A stretch of 64,000 bases of DNA, from assembly GCA_036172245.1 (NCBI GenBank), contig JAYWIR010000005.1, forward strand, positions 2,418,001 through 2,482,000, in the 5' to 3' direction. Numbering within the stretch: position 1 is the first letter of the stretch; each line of letters starts with the position of its first letter. Under the pieces are notes generated by a model that searched no databases, had not been told where the DNA came from, and worked only from the letters and a program-made list of their open reading frames with translations. Source of the stretch: Raillietiella orientalis. Its lineage: Eukaryota. Positions 8,920-62,701 of the stretch are shown piece after piece. The translations under genes and the position numbers were made by a program.

Positions 8920-10686
8920 ATCTGCCAATAACCCAAGCTTCAAGCGCGCCTACGGAGAAAAAGTTTATCGAAACCGCAGAAAGAGAACTGGGCTGGCAGC
9001 TAGTCAGAGCCAAAAAAGAGAAAAAAAACACGCATGTCCCAAAGAAAGGAGATAAGGCGGTAGCCGGAACAAAAGCTCAATTCGTGTCGCGCGTAAAAAC
9101 TCTCCGAGAATGCACAGTGACGCTGGAGCGCACTGACATTCCCGCCGACACCACCCGAGGCGATACGGCTTCGATCGATTTTCCCGCCGCGACGAATGCG
9201 CGCCAAAATCCATCTCCTGCTTGCGAAGAGGGTCAGCCGGACGACAAACGCGCCGAAACCAAGGATCCAGCCTTCAAGAAGGCCGCCGAAGAGCTTGCGG
9301 CAACGCTTGCTGAATGCGAGAAGCATTCGCGGAAGGGGTTCCGTAGGCAGCCAGCGGCTAAAATGGCCCCCCCAGTTAAATCGGATCGGGAGGCCGGAAG
9401 TGCATCCTGTTCTGTGTAAGCACCACCAAGGGAAGCGGGGCGAAAATCCCAGAAACCCGGATGGTGCATTTCGCCTCCGCGCGAGGGGATCCAATGGAGG
9501 AGGAACCAGTGGATGGCAGCGAGGGAGCCCAAGTCGGGCATCACCCACGTCCGGAAGCCGACGAGGGGGCCATTCCGATGGAGGAGGGTAACCAGGGGTC
9601 AGCAATGCCCCCTGAAACCGCCGAATATGAACCACCCGCACCAATGGATGTGGACCAACAGGTACGAGCAACACCCCCTCCGCACGGGCAGCCGGAGACG
9701 TCGGCACGTAAGAAGGATGAGGTGTTGGTGGGCAAGACGCCAACCCCGTCCAGCGACCCGCCTCAAAAGGTGGCGGGAGCTCCACCGCCAGGTTCCCAGG
9801 AATAACACCTGGACTCGCCTGTCGCCGTAGGATCCGTGCGGCAAGTTGGAATGTCAGCGGGCTGCGCGAAGACGGAAACAGACGAGATACAGCCGCCACC
9901 TTGCGAGATTTCGACCTGTAGCTTTTGCAGGAGATCCACGTGATCACCGCAAAAGACGCCCTGAAGATCGAAACGATCGCAGGAGGGCGGTTGTACTGGC
10001 GATGCGGCGCCCGCAACACTTGTGGGGTCGCGTTCTTTCTGAAGCCAGCCATTAACGCGGCCGTGAAGGGCGTAAACTTTGGGGACGACGGACAGAACGG
10101 CCAATTGATTCTCAGATGGTCCGATTCGATCGACCTCATCGTCACCAATGTGTACGCTCCTAGCGCTAAACAGGGATACGAGCAGCACAACGCGTTACTG
10201 GAAATCTTGAAGCGCCAATGGCTGGTGGACGCGGACGTTCGAAAGGCGCATCTGATAGCAGGGGATTTCAACGTCCGTCTGCTCTCAGACCAGCCCGGAG
10301 CCCAGGGGAACGCGATCAACGAGTTTTGCGCTGCCATGCGCGCGCGCAACTTGTTGACAGAAATAAGCGGGATGGTCAGCAGCGTGGACCACGTCTTTCT
10401 CGACGGAGACCTGTGCACACGGGTCGGAAAACGAGGGACACTTGGACCGACGCTGTCGGACCATTCCCGGTTATTATTCGAGATGCGGCCGCGCGACAAG
10501 GGACCGCCATCCAGTGATTAGCGTATGCCAGGGGACTAAACGCGCCTGTCAGGAGCGAAAGAACATCATCGCAAATTCCTGCAAGGCGTCACCTCCAGAG
10601 ACTCGTGGATTGGGACCTATTTAAGAACTCGGTCCGGGAGTTCTGCGAACAGTTCCCTGTGCAACGTCTGCCCCGAGGACACGGCG
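8920..10686 (+). mobile_element. Retrotransposon F1, left segment (5'-truncated in ORF1; APE and linker to LPRGHG); host of B1
   Basis: Homologous to 36156-37500; ORF1 ends GSQE* at 9805; APE ORF 9925..10521 (LQE, NVYAP, GDFN, VDH, SDH). Confidence 0.85.
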
Positions 10687-10893
10687 TTATCACCCGGGTA
10701 CGCCTGGGGCGTTTATTAATAAACTCTACATGCGTGGTAAAAGGCTTCACCACGGCCGTAAACACAGGACCTGTCGGGACACCGGGACGCAGCCCGGCGT
10801 GGCACTCCCCGACAGCGAAAGGGGATAAGGGGAAAAAACAAAAAGAAAAAAAAGAAATAAAAAACAAAAAGTGTTTGGAGGGCAGGGTAGGGA

Positions 10894-13046
10894 TCACTGG
10901 TCGCTGTAAGGAGGGCCCATCCTTCGAAGAAAGCCCTCGATGTATATCCGCATATGACCCAACTGGGGCCATCCAGCAGCTCTCCGCAGAAAGCGTTGGG
11001 CATATGGGATGACATCCCTCGCGTGTTGACCCACTTCTTCGTTGTTGGCGTCGCTCCATGCCGCCACGATGCCACGGACGCAGCACAAGCCTGCGATGGC
11101 TGCGGCTGGCTGCAGTGCGTCCTTCACGAAGAAAGGCCGAAGAACGTCTCTACGGGAACTGCCCATAGGGAGACCGAGGATCGTCCCAAACCGTTCTTAT
11201 AGGGATCATAGAGCAGCACAGTCCACAATAAGGTAGGAGAGCGATTCAAGATCTCCGCACCTGACACACGCAGGATCCACAACTCCTCTTGTCCAGTAGG
11301 AGCGGCGTGCGTTGCAGGGTAAACCCCAATGCCACAATAGCAACGCCGACTCTTGCCACTTGAGGGGCAGGATCCTGGATTCCTGAAGAAGCGGGGGCCA
11401 CTTCAGCACATCCATAGGGATGGCCAGCAGCTCGCCCCATCTTTTTAGTCCTCGCGGCTGGACGCTCGGGGTCGTGGCGTCGGCCAGTTCTCCTGTTGTC
11501 CAGCCGCTGATCAATTTTTCGCGTCCCTCGATGCAGCAGGAGACTTGCCACCTTGGCGTCCGGCTGCTGTGCAGTGCCCTCCTCAGGAAGGGCAGCATCG
11601 TAGCCAGGCAGGTCGTCTCTGCCCACGTGCTTCTTGCTGGACACTCTAGGAGATTCTGCAGCGTGCAGCGGGCGTATTGGCTGCATCAGAGACGATTCCA
11701 CGTTTCGTAGCTCCTCTGGTTAACCGCTGCCCACATTCCAATGTTCTCCTCCAGCCAGGCGGGGGAGTTGGCGGGGCAGGAAACTATCTTGCTGTTCTCC
11801 ATGGCCAACGATGCCATGCGCCCGAGCAGTAGACCGCATCTCCGAATCTTCCGGCCAGGGCACAGAAGAAATGACGCGTGTCCCTCGCACCGGGACACAC
11901 GACTGGCGAGGAGGCGAGCCGGAATGCACCACGGGGTGCTTTACATCTTCGCTGCGATGGCGAGGGTACGCCATTGCACCTGTTTCTCCACGCGCTCCAG
12001 CGTCAGGAGGCTAAGTCCGCCGTCCCGACGAGGAGCGCAAAGGTCCTTCAAAGGGACTCAGGTCCTCCCCTTGCCCCAAAGGGCGATGCGGAGGAGGTAG
12101 TTCGTCCTCTTTTTAACAACTCCTGGGTCGGGGCAAACAAAAAGCAAGGGGCGGAGGATGAGGGCGGCAAAGGCGTTCTAAACAGCGGCCCGTTACGGCA
12201 AGTGAAACTTGCCTTCCAGGAACGGGCTGATCGCCGTCTCGACTTTTTGGAGGCAGCTGGACCACGCTTTCGCAGGGGAGTAGTCCCCCAACGGCACACC
12301 AAGGTACTTGGAGCACCTCGCCGTGGGGATCTCCAGACGGACCCAGTCCTGCTGCCCTGCCCACGCCGCACCTATTGGCACAACCGACGACTTCGCCCTG
12401 TTAACCTGCAGTCCGGTCCCGCGGCTGAGCAGATCGAAGAAGTCTCCGGCTACGTTTGCCGGGGTGGACATTGGCAACAAGAGCAGAAGATCGTCGGCGT
12501 ACGCTGCTACGGCGGGCGTGCCGGGGCACGAGCTCGGCAAGGGGGCCAAACTCATCCTGTACGCTCTCAGCACCAACTCAAAGTAGGTGCTGAAGAGCAG
12601 GGAGCTGAGGGTATCTTGCTGCCTTATGCCCCGCCGCACCGGCACGCCATTCACCTTGTGACCGCTGATATAGACCGTAATCATCGCATTCCGCCAGCAA
12701 GAGCGCAGGTAGGAAATCAGGGAGTGTGGGAAGCCCATGCGACGCAGGAGCTCCAAGAGTAGTTCCTGGTCTACACAGTCGAACGCCTTGTGGAGATCGA
12801 CTGCTAGCGCTAGGGCCCCCTTGCCCGCCAGGGCTCCCTTCCCAGCCTGGCTGGCGGCCCCAATGTGGGGTTGCCGACTTTCCCTATCCCTTTCTTCTCT
12901 CTTCTCTGCGGGTGCACCCATGTGCTGGCGAAGAAGGTTGGCATCCATACTTCTCCCAGGAACAGCATAAGTGTGCTCCGGGCTAATTACGGATTCTGCC
13001 ACCTACCCCAGACGCGAAGCTTATAGCCCTGCTATCAACTTGGCGT
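10894..13046 (-). pseudogene. B1 ORF2 3' piece (RT from DAKL to the CCHC finger), degenerate
   Basis: ORFs 12193..13002 (DLHKAFD, YADD), 11206..11598, 10894..11166. Confidence 0.88.
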
Positions 13047-18943: not shown

Positions 18944-19939
18944 CTATAAACTTGGCGTCCGTATTCACGATGGTGATCGGACGCCAGTTCTTTCAATCCT
19001 TGAGGTCTCCCCCTTTCGGAAGGAGCCTCACTCTGGCTGACCGAAACGAGGAGGGAACATCGCTTTCGTCTCGGATCAGCCTGATCAACTTAAGCAGAAG
19101 GGGTGCCAGCTCTTCCGCGAAGCTCTGAAAGAACTCCGCGGGAAAGCCGTCTTCCCCTGGAGCTTCACGCCTCTAAAGCCTTTTGATACCGGCGAGAATT
19201 TCGTCGGTGGTAAAAGGGTCGTCGAGGCTTTCCATCTCCTCCTCCCCTAGTGCCGGGGCGTCATCCGGAAGCTAGCGCCGAAAGGCGTCTCGATCCGGGG
19301 GCTGTCTGGCGTAAAGGGAGGAATAGAAACTCCGCACGAGATGCCGTATTGACGCCTGGGACGAACATTCCCTGCCCTGGTCGTCCAGCAAGCTGGCCGA
19401 TTCGGATCGCAAGGCTTGGCGTTCGGCCCTGGCGCGGAACTCGGCCACGCGACGGACATTAGGGATTCTCTTGTATTTGCGAGCCTGTAAGTAGGCCCGA
19501 TGGTTGCGAGGACCCTCGCCGAATCCGGGGGGCAGGCGGTTCAGGGGGAACTGCTCGCAGAACTCAAGGACCGAGGCCTTGAGAAGGTCCCAATATGAGA
19601 GATTCTGGAGCGTGTCGCCTCTCAGGTATTCGCGAAGGTGTTCCCTCGCACCTGAGAGTCGCGTCCAGTCCCACGGCGGACGCCAATCCCTGCATGGCGG
19701 TACCTTGTCGCGAGGCCCCATCTCGAAAATTAGCCGGGAATGGTCCGACAACGTTGACGCAACGCTTCCCCGTTTGCCGACCCGTGAACACAGGTCAGCG
19801 TCGAGGAAGACGTGGCCGATGCTGCGAATCATTCCCTTCTCATCCGCGAACAAGTTGCGCGCACGCGTGGCGGCGCACAACTCGTTCATCGCGTTCTCTT
19901 GTGTTTCCAGGTCTCCTGTTAGCAGGCGGAGATTGAAAT
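18944..19939 (-). pseudogene. B1 ORF2 middle piece (APE FN to RT DAK)
   Basis: ORF 19272..19946 is nearly identical to the start of 3207..6350. Confidence 0.88.
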
Positions 19940-20252
19940 TTATCACCCGGTCACGCCGGGGGGTTTATTGATAATAATTAACTGGTCAGGGACAATGTCC
20001 ACAACCAACAGTACGACAGGAAAGATAGAAAAATTTTTGGCACGCAGGCCTGGTAAACAAACCGCTCGCAGCGTGGGAGGAATGAGGGGAAAAAAACAGA
20101 AATCAAAAACTGGAGGGAAAGGTGACGGGTTTTTGGATAGGCTCCGTACTCACGGGGATTTATACGATGAGCACATGAAATGTTTCGGAGCCTATGGGGA
20201 CGCGGGTGTAAAAAGAAAATCCAAAATTAGTTTATGGAGGGTAGGGCAATCA

Positions 20253-22108: not shown

Positions 22109-22220
22109 GCAGTCGAAAGCTTTACGTCAGCTAGAGGGGACGTGTTTTCTCGGTGCTCCTCGTGCCGGGAACCGTCCCTAGGTGTAGGCTTCGTGTGTGG
22201 TGGTGGTCGATCAGGCAGTA

Positions 22221-27518: not shown

Positions 27519-27736
27519 TCCCTTCACGTTCCCTCCCACCCTTTGTTTGTTTTTGTTTAGTTTTTTTGTTTTTCCCCTTTCCCCTGCTGCCTTGGTGGAC
27601 CGTACCGGTCTAGAAACCGGTGAATTAGCAGACTCCCTGGTTCTTAGCTTCTGGCTGGAGCATTGCCACAGCCATTAATAATTTCTTTATAAAGTTTATT
27701 TTTTTAAAAAACGACCCTTAGAAATCCGGCTGAAAA

Positions 27737-31400: not shown

Positions 31401-31454
31401 GATGGAGCGGATGAAAGCACGGAGACGAGAGCGAAGAAAAACACGTCCGCACCC

Positions 31455-33679
31455 GATTGAAATCTACCGCTATCAGGTGAGCTTTTCGCACATTGGTATC
31501 CGCCAGCCAGTCGCGCTTCAGGGATTCCAGCAGCCTGGTGCGGTCGCGGTAACCCTGTTTGCCGCTGGGGCCATACACGTTTGTGACGATTAGGTCGATC
31601 GAGTCGGACCAGCTGAGAATCAGCTGACCGATCCGACCGTCGTCATCAAACCGCACGCCCTTTACGGCAGCGTCGATGACCGGCTTCACTTAGAAAGCGA
31701 CCCTGCAGGTGTTGCGGAGACCGCATCGCCAATACAACCGACCCCCCACGATCGTCTCGATCTCCTGGACATCTGCCGCGGTGATCACGGGGATCTCCTG
31801 CAGCAGGGCCAGGTCGAACTAACGCAGGGTGTCGGCGGTATCTCGCCTGTTACCGTCGTCGCGCAGCCCGTTGACGTTCCAACAGGCGGCGCGAATCCGA
31901 CGGCGACTGGCGTGCCCAGGTGTTACTCCTGGGAAGATGGCGATGCGGCGTCCGCCACCTGTTGCGGCGGGACGCTAGGTGGAGGAGGAGGGTCAGGCGC
32001 TGCGTGAACCTGGTCCCCCTCCTCCATGGGCAACGGCGCGTCGAGCGGGTCACCCTCAGGTGGGGTCGCGCCTACCTGTTGGCCCTCCTCCATGGGGGCA
32101 GGCTGTTCAGGCTCGGCGACTGCAGGGAGGACTTCGCCCCCCTGCTCACCCTCCTCCATGAAGGTGGCCGGCTCGACGGCTTCCGAGCGTGGGAGTTCCC
32201 CCTCCGGGATTCCCACGCAACCGCTACCTTCCTGCTTCTCCTCCTCGCTGGTGGAAGGGAGGCGCCTCCTGGGTTTCTGGGACTTGCGTCCCGACTTCCT
32301 GGGGGGTGCCTCCGAGGAGGAGGACGCACTTCCATCCCCCAGGTTCAACTCACTCGTGAGGGCTTTTTTCGCGAAAGCCGGTCTTCGCACGGCCTTGCGC
32401 GAGGGGTTCTCACGCTCGGCCAGCGTGGCCGGGAGCTCCGCCGCCGCCTGAGCGAACGCGGCGTCCTCGGCTCCGACCGTCTCTATTTCGCGCGGCTCAC
32501 CCTCTGTGTAAACAGAGGGTTCGCCGTCGTGAACCTCGGGCGCGGCGGAAATGGCGAGGGAAGGCTCGTCGCCCCGGGTGGCAATCTCGGGGACGGCTAT
32601 GCGCTCCAGTGCCACCGTGCATTCCCGCATGGTCTTGGAGCGCGGCCCAGGTTTTTTCGCCTTGCCGGCTGTCTTTTTTACAGCTTTCGCGGGTTCCGCA
32701 GGAGGCACCTTTTTCTTCTTTCTGGGCTTGACCAGCTGCCAGCCGTCTTGGACTCCCGCGTCTTCGGAAGGTTTTTCTTCCGACGCCTGTGTGGGAGGAA
32801 CTTGGGTTAGCGGCTGCTGCCGGCCAGTATCTCTTTTTGGACTTTCGACCAATTTTCCGCGTTTTGCCTGCGCTTTCTTTGCAGCAGGCGGCACCGGAGT
32901 GGGGCATTTAGGGCATACGCGGCGCACGTGGCCCTTCTCCCCGCATAAGTGGCACACAATGTTCGGGCACCGCTTGCTCAAGTGTCGTACTGCATTGCAG
33001 TAGCCACAAAAGCGGGGTTTCCCCACGTACCAGAGGTCTACGACTTCGCCATTGACCTCTAGTTTGTGGGGAAGCCCACTCTTCTTCACCGTCACGCGCG
33101 CGGCGGCCTGCCCTCCGGAAAGGGTATTGTAGCCATCAAAGATTGTGGCCTTTGGCCATTGCGCGTGAACATCGCCATATTTTCTTAACTGATCACCAAC
33201 CGCAGACCGCGTCATGCGGCTGGTGATCCCTGTCAGATGGACGACTACGGAGCGGTCCATCGTGACTGGTAGGATCTTGCGTCCGTACACGTTCAGCGGG
33301 GTGGTAATCAAGCTTTGCGCCAAGGTGATGTCCTTGCAGACAACCTCGACGCGCTGTCCCCCGCTGAGCACGGCTAGACCGTCAAGATCCTTTTCTAACA
33401 CGTTGGCGTTCTGCAGCGCCCTGGAAAAGCGCGTGCAGTTCGCCCGTCGAAGAGATTGCCTACCCGGTACACCAAGCTGTGCTTGTACCCAGCTGTCCGG
33501 TAGGCCTCCATCTGGGCCATGGTTTCCGCGCTCGGCGCGGCCACCATGGCGCGCTAGCTCCTCGCCTTGAGCGGTGAGGGCGATTCCGGGACGGACGCCC
33601 CTGATTCTGTAGGCTGTGGGGATGGGCAAGCCTCCCTTACACCTACCTCCATCGTGGTGTCCTCAGACATCGCTGCCAT
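31455..33679 (-). pseudogene. B1 ORF1 (33679-31923) and APE N-half (31923-31455)
   Basis: ORF 31923..33629 with CGYCNAVRHLSKRC, CHLCGEKGHVRRVC; near-identical to B2 ORF1; APE ends HLIAVDFN. Confidence 0.9.
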
Positions 33680-33770
33680 CGGACACCAACGGTGTTCCAC
33701 ACGAACACACACAAAGAAAAAACCGCTTCCTGTCGACTCACTCGGGAGCGAAGTAAAAACACGTCCACTC

Positions 33771-36101
33771 GCCAAGGGAGTCGGCATGGGGCTCGCAACG
33801 AACGCGCGTATTTGCACGCGCGTCGTCACGAGAGGAACCCCAATGTCCGTCACCTGGCCGAATACCGCGCCACAGCCGAGCGACAAGCCTGGCAATCCGG
33901 GTCAGCCAGTATGCTGGATGATTTGGGCCGGGAACGTTCGTCCATGTCTGCGGTACGGAATTTCGTGCGGTGTTTTTATTCCTCCCTTTACGCCAAAACA
34001 CCACCCGAACAAGACGCCTCGCGGCGATTTCTCATTAGTGGTTCCGTGGCTATAGGGGAGGAGGAGACAGAAAGCCTCGATGATTCTTTCACGACCGGTG
34101 AAATTGTCGCCGGTATCAAAAGGATCAAGAGGCGTAAGGCGCCAGGGGAGGACGGTTTGCCCGGGAGTTCTTTCAGAGTTTCGCGGAAGAGCTGGACCCC
34201 CTGGTGCTCGAGTTGACAAGGCGAATCCGGGACAAAGGCGATGTTCCCGCCTCGTTTCCGTCAGCCAGGGTGAGGCTCCTCCCGAAGGGAGGAGACCTCA
34301 GGAAACTTTGCAACTGGCGTCCGATCACGATTGTGAACACGGACGCAAAGTTGATTGCCGGACTGTGGGCTTCGCGATTGGGGCAGGTGTCCAATTCCAT
34401 AATTAGCCCGGAGCAGACTTACGCTGTTCCCGGGCGAAGTATGGAGGACAACCTCTTCTTCGCGAGCACATGGATGCACGCGCAGCGGAGTAATAAAGAA
34501 GGGAAAGAAAAAATTTGCAACCCTACTTTGGGGCCGCCAGTGGGACAGGGAAGGGACCCTCATGCGGAAAAGGGGGCCTAAGCGATCGCAGTCGACCTCC
34601 ATAAGGCATTCGACTGTGTTGACCAGGAACTCCTCTTGGAGCTCCTGGGTCGCATGGGCTTCCCACCCTCCTTGATTACCCACCTGCGCTTTTGCTGGCG
34701 GAACGCGATAATCTCAATTACTTTCAGTGGACAAAAGGTGTATGGCGTGCCGGTGCGGCGGGGCATAAGGCAGGGCGACAGCCTCAGCCCCCTGCTTTTT
34801 AGCACCTACGCTGAGTTGGTGCTGAAAGCGTACAGGGTGACTTTGGCCCCCTTGCCGAGCTCGTGCCCCGGCACGCCAACCGTAGCGGGGTATGCCGACG
34901 ATCTTCTGCTCCTTTTACCTATGTCGACCCCGACGAAGGCGTTTGGAGATTTCTTCGACCTGCTTAGCCGTGGGGCCGGATTGCAGGTCAACAGGGCGAA
35001 GTCGTCAGTGTTGCCAGTTGGAGCGACGTGGGCAGGGCAGGAGGACTGGTTCCGTCTGGGTATCCCCACGGTGAGGTGCATCAAGTACCTCGGTGTTCCG
35101 TTGGGGGACTTCTCCCCTGCGGAAGCGTGGTCCAGCTGCCTCCAGAAAGTCGAGACGGCGATCGGCCCGTTCCTGGAAGGCAAGTTTCACTTGCCGGAAC
35201 GGGCCGCGGTTTGGAACGCCTTCGCGGCCCCCATCCTCCGCCCCTTGCTTTTTGTTTGCTTCGCCCCCGTGGAATCAAAAAAGCGGAGTAAGGACCTTCT
35301 CCGCATAGCTCTTTGGGGCAAGGGGAGGCCCCGAGTGCCTTGAAGGACTTGTGCGCTCCGCGTCGGGACGGCGGTCTCAGCATCCTGACGCTGGAGCGGG
35401 TGGAAATCCAGCTGCGATGGCGGACCCTCGCCATCGCAGCGAAGATGTGGAGCACCGCTTGTTGCATTCCGGCCCGCCTCTTGGCCAGGCGTGTGTCCCG
35501 CTGCGAAGGACTCGCATCGTTTCTTCTGTGCGCTGGCCGTAAGATTCGAAGATGCGGTCTACTACTCGGCCGCATGGCAACCCTAGCGAAGGAGAACGAC
35601 TGGATGCTTTGTTGCACCGCAAACTCCTCCGCTTGAATGGAGGAGACTGCTAGCACCAGGGCCAAGCAGAACCATAGGTGCGAAGACCCGATGAACTGCC
35701 TGCGAGTCGGCTTTTACGCCCGCCGAACTCTTCGTGTAATTATTGAATTTCCACCGAGTTGCACTTGGGCGGAAGGGAAACTCCTTGTTACTGCGATGCC
35801 CTTCCACCGATGGGCGCTTCACGGAAGCCGGAAGCCAAGGTGGCAAGTCTGCTGCCGTATCGCAGGCAGATAGAAGATGATGAGCGGCATGACTATGGGA
35901 GAGTTGACAGATGCGACGACCCTTGGTCTCCAGCCGCGTGGATGAAGAAGATGGGGCGAGCTTTTTGGCATTCGATTGGGTGATCTGAAGTGGCCATCGG
36001 TTCTACTTGTATCCAGGAGTCTTCCTCTGAATTGGCAAGAATCGCCGCTCCTGTGCCTGCATTAGAGTCTTCTATGCAACGCGCCTTGCTTCCACTGGAC
36101 G
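33771..36101 (+). mobile_element. Right segment of the element hosting B1 (probably the F1 continuation): linker and RT, truncated before the CCHC finger
   Basis: Resumes at G-ARNERAYL, the position where F1 stopped; ORFs 34204..34581, 34636..35343 (YADD). Confidence 0.8.
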
Positions 36102-47400: not shown

Positions 47401-48015
47401 CCGAAAACCCTGGATACGATTTCCTAGTTCGGTGCTGTGGAGGACGTGATCGATCGGCTTGTGACTTGCAATTCGCCACACCAGTCCGAACTCTCCGGAT
47501 AACCGCCGATACGCCGTCCTTCGTCTGGCGTCTTCGGAGTGGGTGATTTCATCCAATATGTTGAGATCGCCAGCAACAATCACGACGTCCTTGGAAGCAA
47601 CCTTTTCACGGAGTGCTGCATGCAGCGCCTCCGCACAACGATGTTTTAGCCTGTGCGGCCCGCACAGGTTCACCAGGATGAGGTGAACAGTAGCGGACCA
47701 GGCCAGTCGCACGCCGATGATTCGTCCGGGTTGGGGAGAGAACACTTCCAAAATAGTGAAGGCCAAGTTGATCTTGATTAGGACCGCCACACGCTGCGTG
47801 TTTCGTTTTCCCTCGCTGACGAACATCTGCCCGTTGAATCGCCGTTCCATTTGCTTACTAATCTCGAGACCCATCTTCTGGGTCTCCTGCAGGCACATTA
47901 TGTCTTGTTGTGCGATGGTCCGCACAATACTTTTTCTTTTTTCCTGGTTGACCACACCTTTTGCATTCCAGGAGTCGATGTTCAGCCTCCTGGCGGTCGA
48001 TAGAGAAGAGGACAT
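44483..48015 (-). pseudogene. G ORF2 APE-RT-CCHC, frameshifted
   Basis: SWNAKG, LQET, GDLN, IDH, SDH; QWRPI, DMETAFD, GVRQGDSLS, YADD; CTACGDNDTRLH. Confidence 0.88.
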
Positions 48016-48019
48016 AAAA

Positions 48020-51710: not shown

Positions 51711-54705
51711 TTTGCTACCCGGATATGCCGGGGCATTGATTATTCCAATTTTTTACAAAAATTAGATAATAAAGACTTTAAAAAGATGCTTTCTGTGGGA
51801 AAACACAGGGTTCTCCCACCTTGCTCGAAGTGTCGGTTGCCGGTGCATAGACCGGTTAGGTCCATTCCCGAGACGCGTGGGAAGGGAAAACTGGAACAAA
51901 AACAAACAAAAAAAGAGATAACGGGGTGGGAAACAGTTATATGGGGAGAAAAAAGGGCAGGAAAGGGATCACTGGGCGCCTGGGTCGGTCCTTTGCATCC
52001 TGTTGAGAATGCAGTCAAGTTCAGTTTTCATTGTGAAAGGTAGACGCCACTTTGTCGCCGTCTCTAAAGAGATCGTCGTCCAGTGGATGGCGTCCCTGCA
52101 TCTTGGGCCTCTTCTTCTGGTGTGCCACCTTTGCACAATGCCGCGCACGCAGCAGAGGAATGCTAGAGACGCAGTGGGGCGCAGGCCGTCACGCAGAAAG
52201 AGGCGACGGTAAATTTCCTTAGGGTCGCCTACTGGAAGATGGAGGATTGGGGCGATTCTACTCCAGAGTCCATCCAGGGCGACACACTCGAGGGTGAGAT
52301 GCGGGAAGGTTTCTCTTTCTCCGCACTCGACACAGCGGGCATCCACATTTCCCAGTGTCCAGTGAGACAGGCGTGCTCTGCTTAACAGTCCCCAGTGCAG
52401 AAATAGCAACGCCGTCTCCTGCCACTTCAACGGAAGTGTGCCGCAATCCCAACACGCTGGGGGCCACTTCACCTCCTCCGGAGGTATTGCGAGCAGAACT
52501 CCCCAGCGCGCAATTCCGTGAGGCGGGACGCTCGGGGTGGCAGTGTCCGTGTGCTCCCGAGTCGTCCACGCCTTTGAAGGTTTTTTCCTGCCTCGGATGA
52601 AGTAGGACACTTCCCACGATGCCAGCTCGTTGCTAGTCCTAGGGTTTTTCAGGGAGAACAGAACGAAGGCAAGGGGACTGAAAGAAGCCCACAGAAACTT
52701 CCGGGGCATGTTGATAATCTCCTACAGCGGCTGTCGAGCGTACGGTCCTCGTCGTAGGCAGTTGTATTCCGCCTCGCTCGTGCCGTTGATCTTAGCCCAC
52801 GCGGAAGCTGACTCCTGAAGCCAGGCAGTGCAGTTCGCGGGAAGGCAGGAGATCCAGGTATTCTCCCTTATCAGGGCGACCATCTGGCGCAAATCAAGAC
52901 CACAGCTGGAGAGGTTGCGCTAATAGGCCACGAGGATCGAGGACAATCCTTCGCAGCCGGTCGCTCTTCTTGCGAGGAGCCGTGCAGGATCGCACCATGG
53001 CGTCATCCATAAGCTAGCCGCAAGGGCTAACTTCCGAAGTGTTGTCTGTAGTTGGATGCGCTCCAACGTAAGGAGGCCCAAGCCACCATCCCTGCGTGGA
53101 GCGCACAAGTGTTTCAATCGGAATCGCGACCTCCCTGTGCCCCAAAGGGCAGTCCTCAAGAGGGCTTTGGTCCGTCTCTGTATGATGGGAGGGGCGGAGC
53201 AAACAAAAAGTAAGGGGCAATGGAGAGGGTCCGCGAACGTGTTCCACACCGCGGCCCGCTCCTGCAAGTAAAACTTGCCGTTCCGGAACGGGCCGATCGC
53301 CAACTCCACCTTTTGGAGACGGTCGGACCAGGCTTCTGCAACGCAGAAGTCCCCCAACGGAACGCCAAGGTACTTGAAGCACCTGCCCGTGGGGATCCCC
53401 AAGCGGATCGAGTCCGGTCGTCCGGACCACGCCGTATTGTTGAAAAGTAGTGGTGATGTTGGAACGATGGAAGATTTCTCTCTGTTCACCTCGAGGCTCT
53501 TCCCGAGGCGCAGCAACTCAAAGAAATCTTCGAGCGCCAACGCCAGGGTGGACCCGGAGAGCAGGAGCAGAAGGTCGTCGGCGTAGGCCGACACGGCAGG
53601 CGTGCCGGGACACGAGCTTGGCAGGGTTGCCAGAGTCTCCCTGTATGCCCTCAGCACCAGGTCGAAGTAGATGCTGAAGAGCATGGGTCTCAGACTGTCA
53701 CCCTGCCTTATGCCACGACGAACCGGCACGCCGTACACGTGCCGGCCGCTAAAAGAGATGTTTATTAGAGCGAAGCGCCAGCAAAAGCGCAGGTAAGCCC
53801 GGAAGACTGCCGGGAATCCCAAGCGTTCCAGGAGCTCCAGAAGGAGTTCCTGGTCGACGCAATCGAACGCTTTACGCAGATCGACTGCGACCGCAAGGGC
53901 ACCGGGCGCGGCTCCTCCATGAAGGGCGTTTCCTTCCTGGTCAGAGGAGAATCCAGGATTCTCTTGAGCTCCCTGGTCTTCGCTTCGTTGCAACTGCCGC
54001 CATGTACTGGCGAGGAACAGGTTTGCCTCCATGCTTCGTCCGGGAACAGCGTATGTCTGCTCCGGACTCACCACGGATTCCGCCACCCGTCCCAGTCGCT
54101 CAGCTTAAAGCTTAGCAAGCAACTTCGCATCCGCATTCACTACTGTGATGGGACGCCAGTTGCCTACGTTACGATTGTCTCCTCCTTTCGGCAGGAGACG
54201 TACCTTAGCCGACCGGAACGATTTGGGGACGTCCCCTTGTTCTCGGATCAGCATGCATAGCCGATGCATTAGGGGGGCCAGCTCCGCCACGAAGCCTTGG
54301 TAGAACTCCGCGGGCAGACCGTCTTCTCCTGGTGCTTTCCTCTTTTGGAGCTTTCCGATGACGGAGACCATCTCCGCCATCGAGAAAAGCTCCTCGAGTT
54401 GATGTGTCTGCTCCTCCTGTAGCGCGGGGGCGCCTTGCGGTACCAAGCGCTGCGCCACGGCGCGCTCTGTTATTCTACGCGCGTACAAGGAGGAGTAATA
54501 GTCCCACAGGATGCGGTTTATTCTCTCCGGAGCTGAGCATTCTTGGCCTTGGGCGTCCAGCAAGCTGGCCGACCCGGATTGCCAGGTCTGTCGCTCAGCC
54601 CCAGCTTTATACTCCGCCAGGCGTCAAACGTCGGGAGTCCTAGAGTAAAGACGGGCGTGGTGGTATGTCCGGTCGTTACTCAGCCCTCCGCCGAATCCCT
54701 TGGCG
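51711..54705 (-). mobile_element. Retrotransposon H 3' segment (linker GFG to the 3' end), antisense in E; host of B2/B3
   Basis: ORFs 54105..54563, 52920..54086 (DLRKAFD, YADD), 51969..52709 (CVEC..HLTLEC); terminal GCCCCGGCATATCCGGGTAGCAAA. Confidence 0.88.
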
Positions 54706-54716
54706 AGTGGACGTGT
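54706..54716 (+). promoter_or_regulatory. Conserved 5'-terminal (G/A)GACGTG motif, candidate internal Pol II promoter element (DPE-like)
   Basis: Present at all six A-E 5' ends: 13049, 22138, 31448(-), 33766(-), 43002, 54709, and also 60373. Confidence 0.6.
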
Positions 54717-54794
54717 GTTTCCTTCGCCCCCGAGTGAGTCGACAGGAAGCGGTTTTTTGTTGCGTTGTTTAGTGTGGAACATCGTTGGTATCCG

Positions 54795-56552
54795 ATGGCA
54801 GCGATGCCTGAGGACACCACGATGGAGGTAGGTGTAGGGGAGGCTTGCCCATCCCCACAGCCTACAGAATCTGGGGCGTCCGCCCCGGAATCGCCCTCGC
54901 CGCTCAAGGCAAGGAGCTGGAGCGCCATGGTGGCCGCGCCGAGCGCGGAAACCATGGCCGAGATGGCGGCCTACCGGGCAGCTGGATACAAGCCCAGCTT
55001 GGTTTACCAGGTAGGCAATCTCTTTGACGGGCGAACTGCACGCGCTTTTTCGAAAGCGCTGCAGAACGCCAACGTGTTGGAAAAGGACCTTGACGGTCTA
55101 TCCGTGCTCAGCGGGGGTCAGCGCGTCGAGGTTGTCTGCAAGGACATCACCTTGGCGCAAAGCTTGATAACCACCCCGCTGAACGTGGACGGACGCAAGA
55201 TCCTACCAGTCACGATGGACCGCTCCGTAGTGGTACATCTGACAGGGATCACCAGCCGCATGACGCGGTCTGCGGTTGGTGATCAATTAAGAAAGTATGG
55301 AGATGTTCACGCGCTATGGCCAAAGGCCACAATCTTCGATGGCTACGATAGCCTTTTCGGAGGGCAAGCCGCCGCGCGCGTGACGGTGAAGGAGAGTGGG
55401 CTTCCCCACAAACTAGAGGTCAATGGCGAAGTCGTAGACCTCTGGTACGTGGGGAAACCCCGCTTGTGTGGCTACTGCAATGCAGTAGGACACTTGCGCA
55501 AGCGGTGCCCGAACATTGTGTGCCACTTATGCGGGGAGAAGGGCCACGTACGCCGCGTATGCCCTAAACGCCCCACTCCGGTGCCGCCTGCTGCAAAGAA
55601 AGCACAGGCAAAACGCGGTAAACTGGTCGAAAGACCAAAAAGAGATACTTGCCGGCAGCAGCCGCTAGCCCCTGTTCCTCCCACACAGGCGTCGGAAGAA
55701 AAACCCTCCGAAGACGCGGGAGTCCAAGACGGCTGGCAGCTGGTCAAGGCCAGGTAGGAGAAAAACGTGCACCCCGCGGAACCCGCGAAAGCGGTACAAA
55801 AGACAGCCGGCAAGGCGAAAAATCCTGGGCCGCGCTCTAAGACCATGCGGGAGTGTACGGTAGCACTGGAGCGCATAGCCGTTCCCGAGATTGCCGCCCG
55901 GGGCGAAGAGCCTTGCCTCGCCGTTTCCGCCGCGCCCGAGGTTCGCGACGGCGAACCCTCTGTTTACACAGAGGGTGAGCCGCGCGAAATAGCGACGGTC
56001 GAAGCCGAGGACGCCGCGTTCGCAAAGGCGGCGGAGGAGCGCGCGGCCACGGTGGCGGAGCGTGAGAACCCCTCGCGCAAGGCCGTGCTAAGGCCGGCTC
56101 CCGCGAAAAAGTCCCCCACAGGTGAGTCGGACCTGGAGGCCGGAAGTGCATCCCCCTCCTCGGAGGCACCCCCCAGGAAGTCGGGACGCAAGTCCCAGAA
56201 ACCCAGGAGGCGCCTCCCCACCACCAGCGAAGAGGAGAAGCAGGAAGGTAGCGGTAGCGTGGGAATCCCGGAGGGGGAACTCCCACGCTCGGAAGCCGTC
56301 GAGCCGGCCACCCCCATGAAGGAGGGTGAGCAGGGGGGCGAAGTCCTCCCTGCAGTCGCCGAGCCTGAACAGCCCGCCCTCATGGAGGAGGGCCAACAGG
56401 TAGGCGCGACCCCACCTAAGGGTGACCCGCTCGACGCGCCGTTACCCATGAAGGAGGGGGACCAGGTGCACGCAGCGCCTGACCCTCCTCCTCCACCTAG
56501 CGTCCCGCCCCAACAGGTGGCGGACGCCGCATCGCCATCTTCCCAGGAATAA
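54795..56552 (+). pseudogene. B2 ORF1, gag-like; one in-frame TAG at 55755-55757
   Basis: ORFs 54765..55757 and 55767..56552 in the same frame; two CCHC knuckles. Confidence 0.9.
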
Positions 56553-59500
56553 CACCTGGGCTCGCCAGTCGCCGTCGGATTCGCGCCGCCTGTTGGAACG
56601 TCAACGGGCTGCGCGACGACGGTAACAGGCGAGATACCGCCGACACCCTGCGTGAGTTCGACCTGGCCCTGCTGCAGGAGATCCCCGTGATCACCGCGGA
56701 AGATGCCCAGGAGATCGAGACAATCGCGGGGGGTCGGCTGTATTGGCGGTGCGGCCTCCGCAACACCTGCGGGGTCGCGTTCTTCTTGAAGCCGGCCATC
56801 GACGCGGCCGTGAAGGGCTTGCGCTTCGATGACGACGGTCGGGACGGTCAGCTGATTCTCAGCTGGTCCGACTCGATCGAATTGATCGTCACGAATGTGT
56901 ACGCCCCCAGCGGTAAACAGGAATACAGCGACCGTACCAGGCTGCTGGATTCCCTGAAGCGCGACTGCCTGGCGGACACGAACGTGCGGAAGGCTCACCT
57001 GATAGCGGGAGATTTCAATCTCCGTCTGCTAACAGGTGAGCCAGAAACACAAGAGAACGCGATGAACGAGTTGTGCGCCGCCATGCGTACGTGCAACTTG
57101 TTCGCGGGTGAGAGGGGAATGGTCCGCAGCATCGACCACGTCTTCCTCGACGCTGACCTGTGTTCACGGGTCGGCAAACGGGGGAGGGTTGGGTCGACGT
57201 TGTCGGACCATTCCCGGTTAATTTTCGAGATGCGGCCTCGTGACAAGGGACCGCCATCCAGGGCTTGGCGTCTGCCGGGGGACTGGACGCGACTCTCAGG
57301 TGCGAGGGAATACCTTCGCGAACACCTGAGAGGTGTCACGCTCCGGAATCTCCAGGACTGGAACCTTTTTAAGGAATCGGTCCGCGAGTTCTGTGAGCAG
57401 TTCCCCCTGGATCGCCTGCCCACCGGATTCGGCGAGAGTGCTCGCAACCATCGGGCCTATTTACAGGCTCGTAGATAAGAGAGAACCCCTAATGTTCGTC
57501 GCCTGGCCGAGTACCGCGCCGGGGCCGAACGCCAAGCCTGGCAATCCGGGTCGGCCAGCTTGCTGGACGACCAGGGCCGGGAATGTTCGTCCCCGGCGTC
57601 GGTACGGCATCTAGTGCGGAGTTTCTATTCCTCCCTTTACGCCAGGGAGCCCCCGGATCGAAACGCCTCTCGGCGCTTGCTTCCGGATGGCGCCCCGGCA
57701 ATAGGGGAGGAGGAGATGGAAAGCTTCGACGAGCCTTTTACCACCGGCGAAATTCTCGCCGGTATCAAAAGGCTCAAGAAGCGTAAAGCTCCAGGAGAAG
57801 GCGGCTTGCACGCGGAGGTCTTTCAGAGCTTCGCGGAAGAGCTGGCACCCCTGCTGCTTAAGTTGATCAGGCTGATCCGAGACGAAGGCGATGTTCTCGC
57901 CTCGTTTCGCTCAGCCAGAGTGAGGCTCCTGCCGAAAGGGGGAGACCTCAGGGATTTAAAGAACTGGCGTCCGATCACGATCGTGAATACGGACGCCAAG
58001 TTGATCGCAGGGCTATGGGCTTCGCGTCTGGGGCAGGTGGCAGAATCCGTAATTATCCCGGAGCAGACTTATGCTGTTCCCGGGCGAAGTATGGATGCCA
58101 ACCTCTTCTTCGCACGCACATGGGTGCACCTGCAGAGAAGAGAGAAGAAAGGGATAGGGAAAGTCGGCAACCCCACATTGGGGCCGCCAGCCGGGCTGGG
58201 AAGGGAACCCCGGGCAGGGAAGGGGGCCCTAGCGCTCGCAGTCGATCTCCACAAAACGTTCGACTGTGTAGACCAGGAACTTCTCTTGGAGCTCCTGGGT
58301 CGCATGGGCTTTCCACCCTCCCTGATTTCCTACCTGCGCTCTTGCTGGCGGATTGCGATAATTACCGTCTCTTTCAGCGGTCAAAAGGTGTATGGCGTGC
58401 CGGTGCGGCGGGGCATAAGGCAGGGAGATAGCCTCAGCCCCCTGCTCTTCAGCACCTACTTTCAGTTGGTGCTGAGAGCGTACAGGGTGACTTTGGCCCC
58501 ATTGCCGAGCTCGTGCCCCGGCACGCCCGCCGTAGCAGCGTACGTCGACGATCTTCTGCTTTTGTTGCCAATGTCCACCCCGGCAAAGGCGGTCGGAGAC
58601 TTCTTCGATCTGCTCAGCCGCGGGACCGGACTGCAGGTTAACAGGGCGGAGTCGTCGGTTGTGCCAATAGGTGCGGCGTGGGCAGGGCAGCAGGACTGGG
58701 TCCGCCTGGGGATCCCCACGGCGAGGTGCTTCAAGTACCTTGGTGTGCCGTTGGGGGACTACTCCCCTGCGGAAGCGTGGTCCAGCTGCCTCCAAAAAGT
58801 CGAGACGGCGATCGGCCCGTTCCTGGAAGGCAAGTTTCACTTGCCGGAACGGGCCGCGGCTTGGAACGCCTTCGCGGCCCCCATCCTCCGCCCCTTGCTT
58901 TTTGTTTGCCCCCCCACCGTGGAATCCAAGAAGAGGACGAAGGACCTCCTCCGTATCGCCCTTTGGAGCAAGGGGAGGCCCCGAGTCCCACTGAAGGACT
59001 TGTGCGCTCCGCGTCGGGACGGCGGTCTTGGCCTCCTGACGCTGGAGCGCGTGGAGAAGCAGCTGCGGTGGCAACCCTCGCGATCGCAGCGAAGATGTGG
59101 AGCACCCCTTGGTGCACTCCGGCCCGCCTCCTGGCCAGCCGTGTGTCCCGGTGCGATGGACTCGCGTCTTTTCTTCTGAGCCGTGGCCGGAAGATGCGAA
59201 GATGCGGCCTACTTCTCGGGCGCATGGCAACATTGGCCAAGGAGAACAGCTGGATGGTTTGCTGCCCCGCCAACTCCCCCGCCTGGCTGGAGGAGAATAT
59301 TGGAACGTGGGCAGTAGTTAAGCAGAGAAGCCACGAGACGTGGAATCGTCTCCGATGCAGCCCCTACGCCCGCTGCACGCTGCGGAATCTCCTGGAGAGT
59401 CCAGCAAGATGCACGTGGGCAGAGACGACCTGCCTAGCTACGGCGCTGCCCTTCCTAAGGAGGGCACTTCACAGCACCCGGACGCCTAGGTGGCAAGTCT

Positions 59501-60147
59501 CCTGCTGCATCGAGGGACGCAAGAAGTTGATCAGCGGCTGGACAACAGGAGAACTGGCCGACGGCACGACCCCGAGCGTCCAGCCGCGAGGATTAGTAAG
59601 ATGGGGCTAGCTGCTCGCCATCCCCAGGGATGAGCTGAAGTGGCCCCCGGTGATGAAGGAATCCAGGATCCTGCCCCTCAAGTGGCAAGAGTCGGCGTTG
59701 CTTTTGTTGCATTGGGGTCTACCCTGCAACGCGCGCCGCTTCCACTGGACGAGGGGAGCTGTGGATCCTGCGTGTGCCAGGTGCGGGGAGCGGGAGTCTC
59801 TCCCCCACCTTATTGTGGATTGTGCTGCCCTCCGACCCCTTTGGGAACGGTGCGGGACGACCCTCGGGCTCCCTACAGGCAGCACTTCCAGAGACGTTCT
59901 TCGGCCCCTCTTCGTGAAGGACGCACTGCAGCCAGCCGCAGCCATCGCAGCCTTGTGCTGCGTCCGTGGCATCGTGGGGGCATGGAGCGACGACAACAAC
60001 GAAGGAGTGGGTCCACAGGCGAGGGATGTCATCCCCTATGCCAAACGCTTCTTGCGAAGAGCTGCCGTATGGCTCCAACTGGGGAATATGCAGACTGACC
60101 TCGAGGGCTTCGTTCGACGAATGGGCCCTCCCCACAGCGACCAGTGA
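56552..60147 (+). pseudogene. B2 ORF2 APE-RT-CCHC (about 1200 aa); stops at 57476 and 59608, frameshift near 59075; YVDD
   Basis: ORFs 56687..57478, 57560..59179, 58678..59610, 59650..60147. Confidence 0.92.
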
Positions 60148-60352
60148 TCCCTTCCCTGCCCTCCAACTTCTTTTTGTTTGTTTCTTTTTATTTTACTTTT
60201 TGTCTTATCCTTATCCCCCTTCGCTGTCGGGGAGTGCCACGCCGGGCTGCGTCCCGGTGTCCCGACAGGTCGTGGGTTTACGGCCGTGGTGGGGCCTTGT
60301 ACCACGCAGGTAGAGTTTATTAATAAACGCCCCTGGCGTACCCGGGTGATAA
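60145..60352 (+). other. Structured 3' UTR: TGATCCCT at the stop, U-rich tract, CUGCGU-loop hairpin, AATAAA, terminal CCCGG/CCGGG hairpin
   Basis: Similar architecture at ten 3' ends (3213, 6569, 10687, 18943, 19940, 27736, 39344, 51711, 60352, 62702); degenerate in some copies and extended in subfamily A. Confidence 0.75.
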
Positions 60353-60369
60353 CGCCAACTCCCTTGGCG

Positions 60370-62701
60370 AGTGGACGTGTTTTTCCTTCGCTCTCGAGTG
60401 AGTCGACAGGAAGCGGTTTTTTCTTGTGTTGCTTGGTGTGGAACATCGTTGGTGTCCGATGGCAGCGTTGCCTGAGGACACCAAGATGGAGGGAGGTGTG
60501 GGGGAGGCTTGCCCACCCCCACAGCCTACAGAATCAGGGGCGTCCGCTCCGGAATCGCCCTCGCCGCCCAAGGCGAGGAGCTGGAGCGCCATGGTGGCCG
60601 CGCCGAGCGCGAAAACCGTGGCAGAGATGGCGTCTACCGGGCAGCTGGGTACAAGCCCAGCTTGGTATACCAGGTAGGCCCCTTGTTTGATGGAAAAACG
60701 GCACGCGTGTTTTCGAAAGCGCTGCAAAACGCCGGAGTAAGAGAACAAGATCTTGACGGTTTGTCCGTTCTCAGCGGAGCTCAGCGAGTCGAGGTGGTGT
60801 GCAATGAGATCACCTTGGCTCAGGCTCTGATCACCAACCCGCTGAACGTCGACGGCCGCAAGATCTTGCCAGTGACGATGGACCGCTCCGTGGTAGTCCA
60901 TCTCACTGGAATAACGAGCTGTATGAGTCGCTCTGCGGTCGCACAAGAACTGCAGAAGTTCGGCGAGGTGCACGCGCTGTGGCCTAAGCCAACAATCTTT
61001 GAAGGCTTCAATAGCCATTTCGAAGGCCAGGCTGCAGCGCGGGTAACCGTGAGTAAGGATTGTGGGCTTCCCCACAAGCTGGAGGTCGCGCAAGAGAGCG
61101 TGGACCTCTGGTACGTGGGAAAGCCCCGGTATTGCGGCTACTGCGATACCGTAGGACACCTTCGCAAGAGGTGTCCTAACATCCAATGCCACATGTGCGG
61201 GGAGAAGGGCCACGTTCGACATGTGTGCCCAAAACGCCCCACCCCGGTTCCTCCTGCCGCGAAAAAGGCGCAGGGGAAACGCGCACTAAAGGTCAGAAGA
61301 CCTAACGCGGACGCTGGCCGGCTGAAGCTGCCAGATCCTCAACCTCCAAAAGAAAAAACGGAGGATAAACCTTCCCAAGAGGCAGTAGGTGAAGAGGGCT
61401 GGCAACTTGTAGCAGCCAGAAAAGAGAGAAAAGCTCTTTTAAAGGAGAAGAAAGAGAAGCCGGCCGGTAAGGCAAAAAATCCCGGGCCGCGTTCGAAAAC
61501 CGTACGCGACTAAACGGTGGCACTGGAACGTATCGTCGTTCCGGAAGATGCCACCGGGGCGACGAGCCTCCCCTCGCCGTTTCCGTCGCGCCCGAAGTTC
61601 GCGACGGCGAACCCTCTGTGCAAACAGAGGGTGAGCCGCGCGACGCGCCGGTCGACACCGAGGACGCCGCGTTCGCAAAGGCGGCGGAGGAGCGCGCGGC
61701 CACGCTGGCGGAGCGTGAGAACCCCTCACGCAAGGCCGTGCGAAGGCCGGCTCCCGCGAAAAAGGCCCCCACAGGTTAGTCGGACCTAGGGGCCGCAAGT
61801 CCATCCTCCTCCTCGGAGGCATCCCCCAGGAAATCGGGACGCAAGTCCCAGAAACCCAGGAGGCGGTTCCCCTCCACCAGCGAGGAGGAGAAGCAGGAAG
61901 CTAGCGGTAACTTGGGAATCCCGGAAGGGGAACTCCCACGCTCGGAAGCCGTCGAGCCGTCCACCCCCATGGAGGAGGGTGAGCAGGGGGGCGAAGTCCT
62001 CCCTGCAGTCGCCGAGCCTGAACAGCCCGCCCCCATGGAGGAGGGCCAACAGGTAGGCGCGACCTCACCTGAGGGTGACCCGCTTGACGCGCCGTTACCC
62101 ATGGAGGAGGGGGACCAGGTGCCCGCAGCGCCTGACCCTCCTCCTCCACCTGGCGTCCCGCCCCAACAGGTGGCGGACGCCGCATCGCCATCTTCCCAGG
62201 AGTAACACCTGGGCTCGCCAGTCGCCGTCGGATTCGCGCCGCCTGTTGGAACGTCAACGGGCTGCGCGACGACGGTAACAGGCGAGATACGGCCGACACC
62301 CTGCGTGAGCTCGACCTGGCCCTGCTGCAGGAGATCCACGTGATCACCGCGGCAGACGCCCAGGAGATCGAGACGATCGCGGAGGGTCGGTTGTATTGGC
62401 GGTGCGGCCTCCGCAACACCTGCGGGGTCGCGTTCTTCGTGAAGCCGGCCATCGACGCTGCCGTAAAGGGCGTGCGGTTTGATGACGACGGTCGGATCGG
62501 TCAGCTGATTCTCAGCTGGTCCGTCAGACCATTCTCAGCGTCAACGTTGTCGGACCATTCCCGGTTAATTTTCGAGATGCGGTCTCCCGACAAGGGACCG
62601 CCATGCAGGGACTAGCGTCTGCCGGGGGACTGGACGCGACTCTCAGTTGCGAAGGAACACCTTCGCGAATACCTGAGAGGCGTCACGCTCCGGAATCTCC
62701 A
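60370..62701 (+). mobile_element. Retrotransposon B3 5' segment, head-to-tail with B2 (ORF1 60459-62205; APE with internal deletion); cut by I
   Basis: 5' UTR same as B2/B1; ORFs 60509..61513, 61912..62205, 62340..62615. Confidence 0.9.

Follow-up and report, generated by a model that had tools for sequence, protein, structure and literature searches.

Do the members of one family of long interspersed nuclear elements (LINEs) return to the same codons of their relatives each time they insert? The question is raised by a 64-kb stretch of Raillietiella orientalis DNA (GenBank assembly GCA_036172245.1, contig JAYWIR010000005.1, positions 2,418,001 to 2,482,000), called the window below and 64,000 nt in length. 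The window has a G+C content of 58% and consists mostly of LINEs nested inside LINEs, of the L1-like type that encodes an apurinic/apyrimidinic endonuclease (APE) together with a reverse transcriptase (RT). The element names used here (B, C, F, G, H, X, Y and Z) were coined for this analysis, and the map was drawn with the full-length copy B2 and three other full-length elements, C, X and Y, as references. In the mapped part of the window, nesting reaches up to three levels (Y2 inside X2, inside Ba, inside H1), and the copies Ba, B2, C, X2 and Y2 are all full length. Our main subject is family B, for which the original prediction had proposed site-preferential insertion, always antisense, at one linker position in the second open reading frame (ORF2) of different sibling LINEs. 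The core of that proposal holds, with independent hosts and with joints from outside the window on its side, although it rests on fewer events than had been counted.

B junctions in the ORF2 linker

The junctions of B with its hosts fall at a homologous site of ORF2 (about 2737-2746 in B2 coordinates), in the linker between the APE and RT domains whose native motif is LPxGFG, and all linker-site B insertions are antisense to the host ORF2. The copies and hosts concerned are the following.

54690-60353, plus strand: B2, a full-length B, with its preceding 14-mer
54704..60353, plus strand: the B2 body, which comprises a 5' untranslated region (UTR), an ORF1 that encodes a CCHC knuckle, an ORF2 that encodes APE and RT, and the 3' end ...CCCGGGTGATAAC; it contains stops and frameshifts
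60354-62523, plus strand: B3, a third B copy represented by its 5' part, with its preceding 14-mer
60368..62523, plus strand: the B3 body, B coordinates 1-2168; it resumes at 62540-62701 and is then interrupted by antisense G from 62702
10686-33785, minus strand: Ba, the whole copy including nested elements, between the left and right parts of H1
10686..13046, minus strand: Ba piece 1, the 3' part, B2 coordinates about 3302-5664
18945..19939, minus strand: Ba piece 2, B2 coordinates about 2324-3317
31456..33771, minus strand: Ba piece 3, the 5' part, B2 coordinates about 15-2332
33772..33785, minus strand: the Ba 14-mer, GCCGACTCCCTTGG; the 3' flank of the same copy, GCCGTGTCCTCGGG, is the reverse complement of 10672-10685, and 5 of the 14 positions differ
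8919-10685, plus strand: H1 left part, ending in LPRGHG (CTGCCCCGAGGACACGGC, 10668-10685)
33786-36101, plus strand: H1 right part, an ORF2 that starts directly after the linker, B2 coordinates about 2747-5063
51711-54689, minus strand: F, the 3' part of a LINE

The sequences at every place named by the original prediction are as it described them. Within 54682-54716, the antisense ORF2 of host F stops at 54689 and is followed by the 14-mer GCCGAATCCCTTGG (54690-54703) and then by the B2 body, CGAGTGGACG, from 54704. On the other side of the window, the last bases of H1 on the plus strand, up to 10685, are ...CTG CCC CGA GGA CAC GGC; from 10686 onwards the B 3' end is read as its reverse complement (GTTATC...). 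Position 33771 is the last base of a reverse-complemented B body, next to which stand the 14-mer (as its reverse complement, CCAAGGGAGTCGGC, 33772-33785) and, from 33786, the resumed H1. Lastly, B2 finishes with ...GATAAC at 60353, where the 14-mer of B3, GCCAACTCCCTTGG (60354-60367), intervenes before the B3 body begins at 60368.

Three of these junctions had been listed as separate events; those at 10686 and 33771 are instead the two ends of one full-length antisense copy, Ba, in H1, which is split by nested C (13047-18944) and nested X2 (19940-31455). The left and right parts of H1 are colinear, both lie on the plus strand, and both are sister to the B group (the left part in the APE-region tree, the right part in the RT tree), which is consistent with a single host. 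For the window, the count of host events drops from three or four to two, to which one tandem B-B joint is added. At the tandem joint, which had been named as a further use of the same kind of site, B3 follows the last base of B2 head to tail with a 14-mer of its own, so that either B2 or B3 reused the site beside a resident B. The exception announced near 6569 was found as well: the 3' end of B1 (...GGGTGTAAAC) adjoins the ORF1 region of Y1 at 6570, in the sense orientation and away from any linker. At its other end, B1 starts at a GDFN site because X1 (1-3213) inserted there.

The hosts belong to distinct lineages. F covers ORF2 from directly after the LPxGxG linker, where it is cut by B2, to its 3' end (...CCGGGTAGCAAA), and aligns by tblastn (51996-54707, minus strand) with residues 144-1046 of the B1 ORF2 protein at 57% identity. 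In the RT-region tree it branches off deeply on its own, sharing 68-71% identity with each of the other families (68% with H1), while the right part of H1 is 82-85% identical to the B group and sister to it; H1 and F stand on separate, well-supported branches. In steps of 300 bp, the flanking host sequences of the H1 and F loci are identical at 174/299, 204/298 and 191/291 positions (58-68%), against 275/299, 283/299 and 286/300 (92-95%) over the first 900 nt of the Ba and B2 bodies. Since this step in identity falls exactly at the junction, a duplicated composite and a conversion tract across the junction are both excluded, in keeping with the earlier judgement that a single duplication was unlikely. 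Together with the deep position of F, the same contrast between flank and body makes the insertion of B2 in F independent of that of Ba in H1.

The B copies also differ among themselves. B3 and B2 (60368-61260 compared with 54704-55600) are 92% identical over the first 300 nt and 77-78% over the next 600 nt, in ORF1, which makes B3 either a mosaic or a member of another subfamily with the same 5' UTR. A deletion of 322 bp in B3, at 62523-62540 (B coordinates about 2169-2490), has removed the GDFN site used by family X. Between B1 and Ba, one bin (5396-5695 against 11530-11830, minus strand) is 68% identical where the neighbouring bins reach 86-87%, and may represent a local conversion or mosaic tract.

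Outside the window, B-like sequence was found in one public run, which holds 36% of the sampled B2 words; two related runs hold next to none, one yielding a short unrelated piece and the other nothing. Short-read contigs of the first run were aligned to 54400-60420, and among the 11 joints listed, two connect a B end to antisense linker and differ from the window junctions. In the joint 57429/60357, the B tail runs through GCC against host sequence GGATTTGGC beside GTTATC, where the window reads GGACACGGC; this difference in the host reading points to another locus. In the joint 54733/57425, a B 5' region that lacks about 34 nt present in both window junctions meets antisense linker, the host being 80% or more like B2. 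The joints listed include another three, which lie at the sites of families X (57020, once) and C (58003, twice). The contig joints, seen in a listing that covers 8 of 244 loose ends and 9 of 380 contig pieces, are supporting evidence, not a survey. A target pattern drawn up after the fact, GCCCYNYGCCRNNTCC, has 7 matches at no more than one mismatch against 1.6 expected, among them two occupied sites and two unoccupied B-family linkers; having been derived from the data, it proves nothing by this excess.

Sibling families and their sites

B had been put forward as the strongest case of its kind in the window, a place that belongs to family X, with three independent events (X1, X2 and X3) at the GDFN codons of the APE domain. 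Families Y and C insert at other codons. The sites and elements are these.

3210-3221, 19932-19943, 31456-31463 and 37495-37505, sense: X sites, in hosts B1, Ba and H3
19940-31455, minus strand: X2, sense in Ba at the GDFN codons, with a target-site duplication (TSD) of ATTTCAAT matching 8/8; split by Y2
22118-27736, plus strand: Y2, antisense in X2 at the KAFD codons of RT, with the TSD TCGAA
22113-22118, 27733-27741 and 39340-39347, antisense: Y junctions, in hosts X2 and X3
13047-18944, plus strand: C, full length and of a sister family of B; it interrupts the RT codons NTDAKLI of Ba in antisense

X inserts in the sense orientation between GGAG and ATTTCAAT, with an 8-bp TSD. The X1 and X2 3' junctions, in two B copies, both pass from ...GGGTGATAA to ATTTCAATCTCC, and X2 has a matching 5' junction as well; X3, which is 5'-truncated, begins after GGGAGA of the unrelated host H3. 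Its start, AAGCTTGGCGTGGAGG, was considered as a 5' terminus and rejected, being internal X sequence. X1 and X2 are 92-99% identical per 300-bp bin, closer than their hosts B1 and Ba (68-93%), and the 3' flanks of B1 and Ba differ; the two insertions are thus independent. Seven native GDFN sites are unoccupied, of which the one in B2 alone reads exactly GATTTCAAT while the other six differ.

Y is represented by two events, Y2 in X2 and Y3 in X3, both antisense to the KAFD codons and with junctions that pass from ...GAAAA to TCGA[A/T]CGCCTTG; in host sense, the site lies directly after AAGGCG[T/A]TCGA, also given as AAGGCGTTCGA. X1, the closest relative of X2, keeps an empty Y site (1014-1025). 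Y2 and Y3 are 83% identical, and X2 and X3 90%. The TSD of C is 14 bp long, TAT[C/A]AACTTGGCGT, and its two copies (13033-13046 and 18945-18958) match at 13/14 positions. The double break at 58003 among the public-run joints lies at the B2 position homologous to the C site, and C may have a preferred site too.

Fourteen insertion events can be placed on a host coordinate. Site and orientation coincide in five pairs (one for B, three for X and one for Y), every pair within one inserting family, where uniform random insertion (about 5.65 kb in two orientations) would by our arithmetic give about 0.008 coincident pairs. The repeated junctions are real and far beyond chance. A wider proposal, which we advance tentatively and at slightly less than even odds, is that these sister L1-like families form a guild whose members home, to the single nucleotide, into the codons of different conserved ORF2 motifs of one another: B antisense into the LPxGxG linker, X sense into GDFN, Y antisense into KAFD and C antisense into NTDAK, with B bearing a 14-nt copy of its target on its RNA. 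If this is true, the most constrained sequence of relatives would be a safe and permanent landing pad whose use knocks out competitors, and the 14-nt copy borne by B would rebuild the landing site and seed head-to-tail arrays.

Mode of insertion and the 14-nt segment

For B itself, the reading we favour, with a probability of roughly 65%, is integration by target-primed reverse transcription (TPRT) at a preferred, nucleotide-precise linker site of other LINE families, in antisense; the evidence consists of the two host events, the tandem joint and the two contig joints from outside. The target, entered antisense, would be the stretch that codes for LPxG[F/H]G, the linker motif separating APE from RT. 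To judge from the 3' junctions, the host sense strand would be nicked directly after ...GGN-xxC-GGC, whereupon the freed 3'-OH would prime cDNA on the tail of the B RNA, ...GATAAC. The opposite strand would be cut about 14 nt away, as the 14-bp TSD of C suggests, and joining at the 5' side would be helped by the 14-nt segment GCC[G/A]A[A/C]TCCCTTGG at the 5' end of the B RNA, in a manner resembling the R2 and R1 cotranscripts. Because the 14-mer mimics the target, each insertion would rebuild a landing site at its 5' edge, which could account for the head-to-tail order of B2 and B3. The main determinant of the site would most likely be the endonuclease specificity of each family.

Several observations weigh against this reading. 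The site might be set by RNA or cDNA homology and not by the endonuclease. The numbers are small, with just the two host events and the tandem joint in the window, and of the four assessable B copies there, three lie at the linker target and one, B1, lies elsewhere. Eleven native linkers of the window carry no insertion, including three in B-family copies that read GGATTCGGC; either the site alone is insufficient, then, or B activity was low. All B copies in the window are degenerate, so that activity cannot be read from them. The contig joints, that at 57429/60357 in particular, might represent the far junction that the B2/B3 array lacks, and not a new event. Metagenome scans yielded no relative, neither with the common 3'-end motif (0 matches) nor with the B1 ORF2 protein (62 pattern matches), and a peptide spanning the B 5' junction (82 aa, residues 1-61 scored) found no candidate among proteins of 45-144 aa. 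Over the whole window Rfam had 0 matches at gathering score, with neither a ribozyme nor another RNA family at the B 5' end; its four matches at 54500-55100 are at chance level (E 0.49-7.4).

Much turns on the nature of the 14-mer, which precedes the B body at 33772-33785, 54690-54703 and 60354-60367 in copies that differ at 1-2 positions. In host sense, all three B 5' ends read CTC GCC AAG GGA xTy GGC, that is LAKG[F/V]G, and none of the window's 11 native linker sites has the codon AAG (Lys) or GCC (Ala) there. The 14-mer of Ba matches the 3' flank of the same copy at 9/14 positions, the differences forming two codon-sized blocks (CGA for AAG and CAC for GTC). When the 14-mer is set aside, the start of the B body, CGAGTGGACG, falls level with those of X and C in the alignment, which makes the 14-mer extra sequence; its length equals that of the C TSD. 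Judged from these alignments, it is probably a target-like segment that travels with B as the equivalent of a TSD, and not host sequence. The Phe and Val residues of the linker, read by the original prediction as belonging to the hosts, are then probably B-borne, and the H version, LPRGHG (10668-10685), is the only linker reading that is certainly host sequence. A heptamer common to the B 5' junction and the C TSD, CTTGGCG, may mark a common 5' end.

The 14-mer might instead be a plain TSD, duplicated host sequence, with B accepting only hosts whose linker reads ...CC AAG GGA xTy GGC. It stands exactly where a TSD is expected, the alignment of the body starts fits this explanation too, sister family C makes a true 14-bp TSD, and the 14-mers flanking B2 (54690-54703 and 60354-60367) match at 12/14. 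Ba, however, is the only copy with host on both flanks, and there the match falls to 9/14 in codon-sized blocks, whereas the flanks of the younger nested C and X2 match at 13/14 and 8/8. Moreover, the same rare variant, with its AAG and with GCC in place of a proline codon, both absent from the 11 native sites, would be required in three different hosts. On balance, we regard a plain TSD as unlikely.

More doubtful is homology-guided targeting, in which a little-specific endonuclease would be directed to the linker by terminal pairing of the B RNA or cDNA, through the 5' 14-mer and perhaps through the GCC after ...GATAAC. The B 5' segment GCCGAATCC is the antisense of the native B-family linker GGATTCGGC, GCC follows the tail in both B2 and Ba, and for R2-type elements the cited passages describe cotranscribed target sequence as strengthening target-specific integration (PMC4494074). 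TPRT begins, though, at the 3' junction, where no more than 3 nt are shared; X, Y and C are equally precise, with true TSDs and no obvious terminal homology; and the native B-family linkers that match the 14-mer best are unoccupied in all three copies.

It is very improbable that there was no targeting at all and that the junctions are copies of one ancestral composite of host and B, multiplied by segmental duplication or by retrotransposition as a unit, whose hosts were later homogenised or diverged. A first look suggests a region full of duplicated composites (such as 1047-4204, 93% identical to 18949-22106 in reverse complement), yet the step from 58-68% to 92-95% lies exactly at the junction, F and H1 sit on different deep branches, and the X and Y inserts differ from their hosts in divergence, with an empty site in existence. 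Least credible of all is that the junctions are artefacts, whether from chimeric assembly, from twin priming with 5' inversion or from template switching by RT at conserved motifs. The breakpoints do lie in conserved motif-coding stretches (LPxGFG, GDFN, KAFD and NTDAK) where microhomology is frequent, yet complete element termini are joined to internal host sites and not to positions homologous to their own. Ba has its full length and is bordered by host at either end, clean TSDs surround the nested events, the inverted and direct parts come from different families, unlike the products of twin priming, and joints of the same kind occur in independent short-read contigs.

Neighbouring elements and known systems

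By its domain order, B is an APE-type retrotransposon without long terminal repeats and L1-like, with indirect hints of a place in the L1 clade. In B2, Pfam reports Exo_endo_phos at 56501-57478 (E 3.5e-12) and RVT_1 at 57479-59179 (E 1.2e-19), with zf-CCHC in ORF1, upstream of ORF2 (E 7e-6, within 54738-55757); in element C, Exo_endo_phos and RVT_1 occur together in one frame. Of the solved structures, the human L1 endonuclease comes closest to that of the reference copy (E 2e-6), and the R1 and TRAS endonucleases are absent among the solved-structure matches at E <= 0.01. The closest database relative of the ORF2, from a metagenome contig, is 68% identical and the remainder no more than 30%; those at 29-30% carry RVT_1, Exo_endo_phos and zf-RVT. 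In a cluster look-up of 10 ORF2 relatives, one cluster holds plant (Fagus) reverse transcriptases, which are L1-like, and the Protein Atlas matches are to generic reverse-transcriptase clusters only. The families of the window are 64-85% identical to one another in the DNA of the RT region.

The B 3' end, ...CCCGGGTGATAAC (also given as ...GGGTGATAAC), has no poly(A) and differs in this from the poly(A) or A-rich 3' tail of L1-like LINEs. Sibling 3' ends read GATAA, GGCAAC, GAAAA or AGCAAA and lie downstream of a conserved small hairpin. All families have in common a 3' module made up of AATAAAC, the hairpin ACGCC-CCN-GGCGT, CCGGGTG and a short family-specific tail; in F, the hairpin reads ATGCC-CC-GGCAT, with both sides of the stem changed. 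The module is likely an RT recognition element. It is found at the following 3' ends.

3180-3213, plus strand
6540-6570, plus strand
10686-10720, minus strand
18910-18944, plus strand
39344-39375, minus strand
51711-51745, minus strand
60320-60353, plus strand

Among the 3' junctions read in the window, 7/10 are antisense. The remainder of the map, drawn on the full-length elements, is as follows.

1-3213, plus strand: X1
3214-6570, plus strand: B1
6570-8919, plus strand: Y1
36156-37500, plus strand: H3
37501-39343, plus strand: X3, 5'-truncated
39344-43004, minus strand: Y3
43005-50550, mixed strands: partly assigned, including a distant LINE on the minus strand
50550-51710, plus strand: an X-like element, host of antisense F
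from 62702, minus strand: G, antisense in B3

The distant LINE (45460-48021, minus strand, with ORF1-like frames to 50646) stands amid this nest of close relatives with 25-28% amino acid identity to the B and C ORF2, and has an RT and a CCHC ORF1. The H copies at 8919 and 36156 begin at an identical base (ATCTGCCAATAACC...), equivalent to about B coordinate 960, the first at the YADD codons of Y1 and the second (H3) in H1 after 55 unassigned bases; this common start may go back to a truncated master copy, or the family may be a short one whose true 5' end lies here. F lies antisense in the X-like element (51700-51722, ...AGCAAA joined to CGTCGAATGGAG), about 57 codons past the linker. G lies antisense in B3 (62695-62710, ...GGGTTTCAA joined to TGGAGATTCCGG) between the codons RNLQ and DW; position 62706, considered as an X-like 5' end, was rejected, being the 3' end of antisense G. 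The 5' end of Z is located within Y3.

As far as the cited passages go, LINEs that target other transposons, LINEs that nest in themselves and APE-type sequence-specific endonucleases are all known already. Tx1L, a Tx1-clade LINE of Xenopus, inserts into the DNA transposon Tx1D and resembles B as an APE-type LINE with a preference for a specific place within another transposable element (PMC4494074, PMC6719617). As described there, its target is a DNA transposon, whereas that of B is the coding sequence of a sibling LINE, entered antisense; here, moreover, several sister families each have a site of their own. The nearest solved endonuclease is that of human L1. The green-algal Zepp and ZeppL, L1-type LINEs, are described in the passages cited as forming nested clusters by targeting existing copies, and share with the window both this clustering by nested insertion and a high GC content (61% in Coccomyxa, 58% here) (PMC8226300, PMC3446292). 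In those passages Zepp arrays consist mostly of 3' ends through 5' truncation, unlike the window, where many copies are full length and occupy set internal ORF2 codons in a set orientation. Cnl1, a LINE of Cryptococcus, is similarly described as inserting preferentially within itself to give nested arrays, which are tandem, near telomeres and of its own family, in contrast to B, which enters a coding motif of other families in antisense (PMC9942834).

Few APE-type LINEs have programmable, nucleotide-precise targets, and such elements are wanted as tools for site-specific gene insertion. Should the wider proposal of a guild be true, retrotransposons would parasitise the conserved coding motifs of their relatives, which would offer a safe haven and at the same time disable competitors, and close families with different targets would amount to a natural experiment on the endonuclease and RNA determinants of target choice. 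The guild would account, too, for the growth of pure Zepp-type LINE nests, which mark centromeres in some algae, without damage to host genes. The literature searched yielded no sister LINE families that each use a different fixed block of conserved-motif codons in the ORF2 of the others; an earlier description for Zepp is possible.

Parallels in precision are R1, TRAS, SART and R2, which insert to the nucleotide at repeated targets; theirs are ribosomal DNA or telomeric repeats, whereas that of B is LINE genes. The endonuclease domain of R1Bm, according to the passage cited, specifically cuts both strands of its target (PMC1919474), and for R2-type elements a cotranscribed upstream target sequence is described as aiding 5' joining (PMC4494074). 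The target-like 14-mer before 3/3 of the B 5' ends, which in Ba mismatches the host, may correspond to an R2-like use of target sequence on the RNA; Rfam showed no ribozyme there. What marks the sequence-specific LINEs as a class, namely insertion at the same nucleotide and in the same orientation in independent copies, is seen in B as well, in Ba within H1 and in B2 within F.

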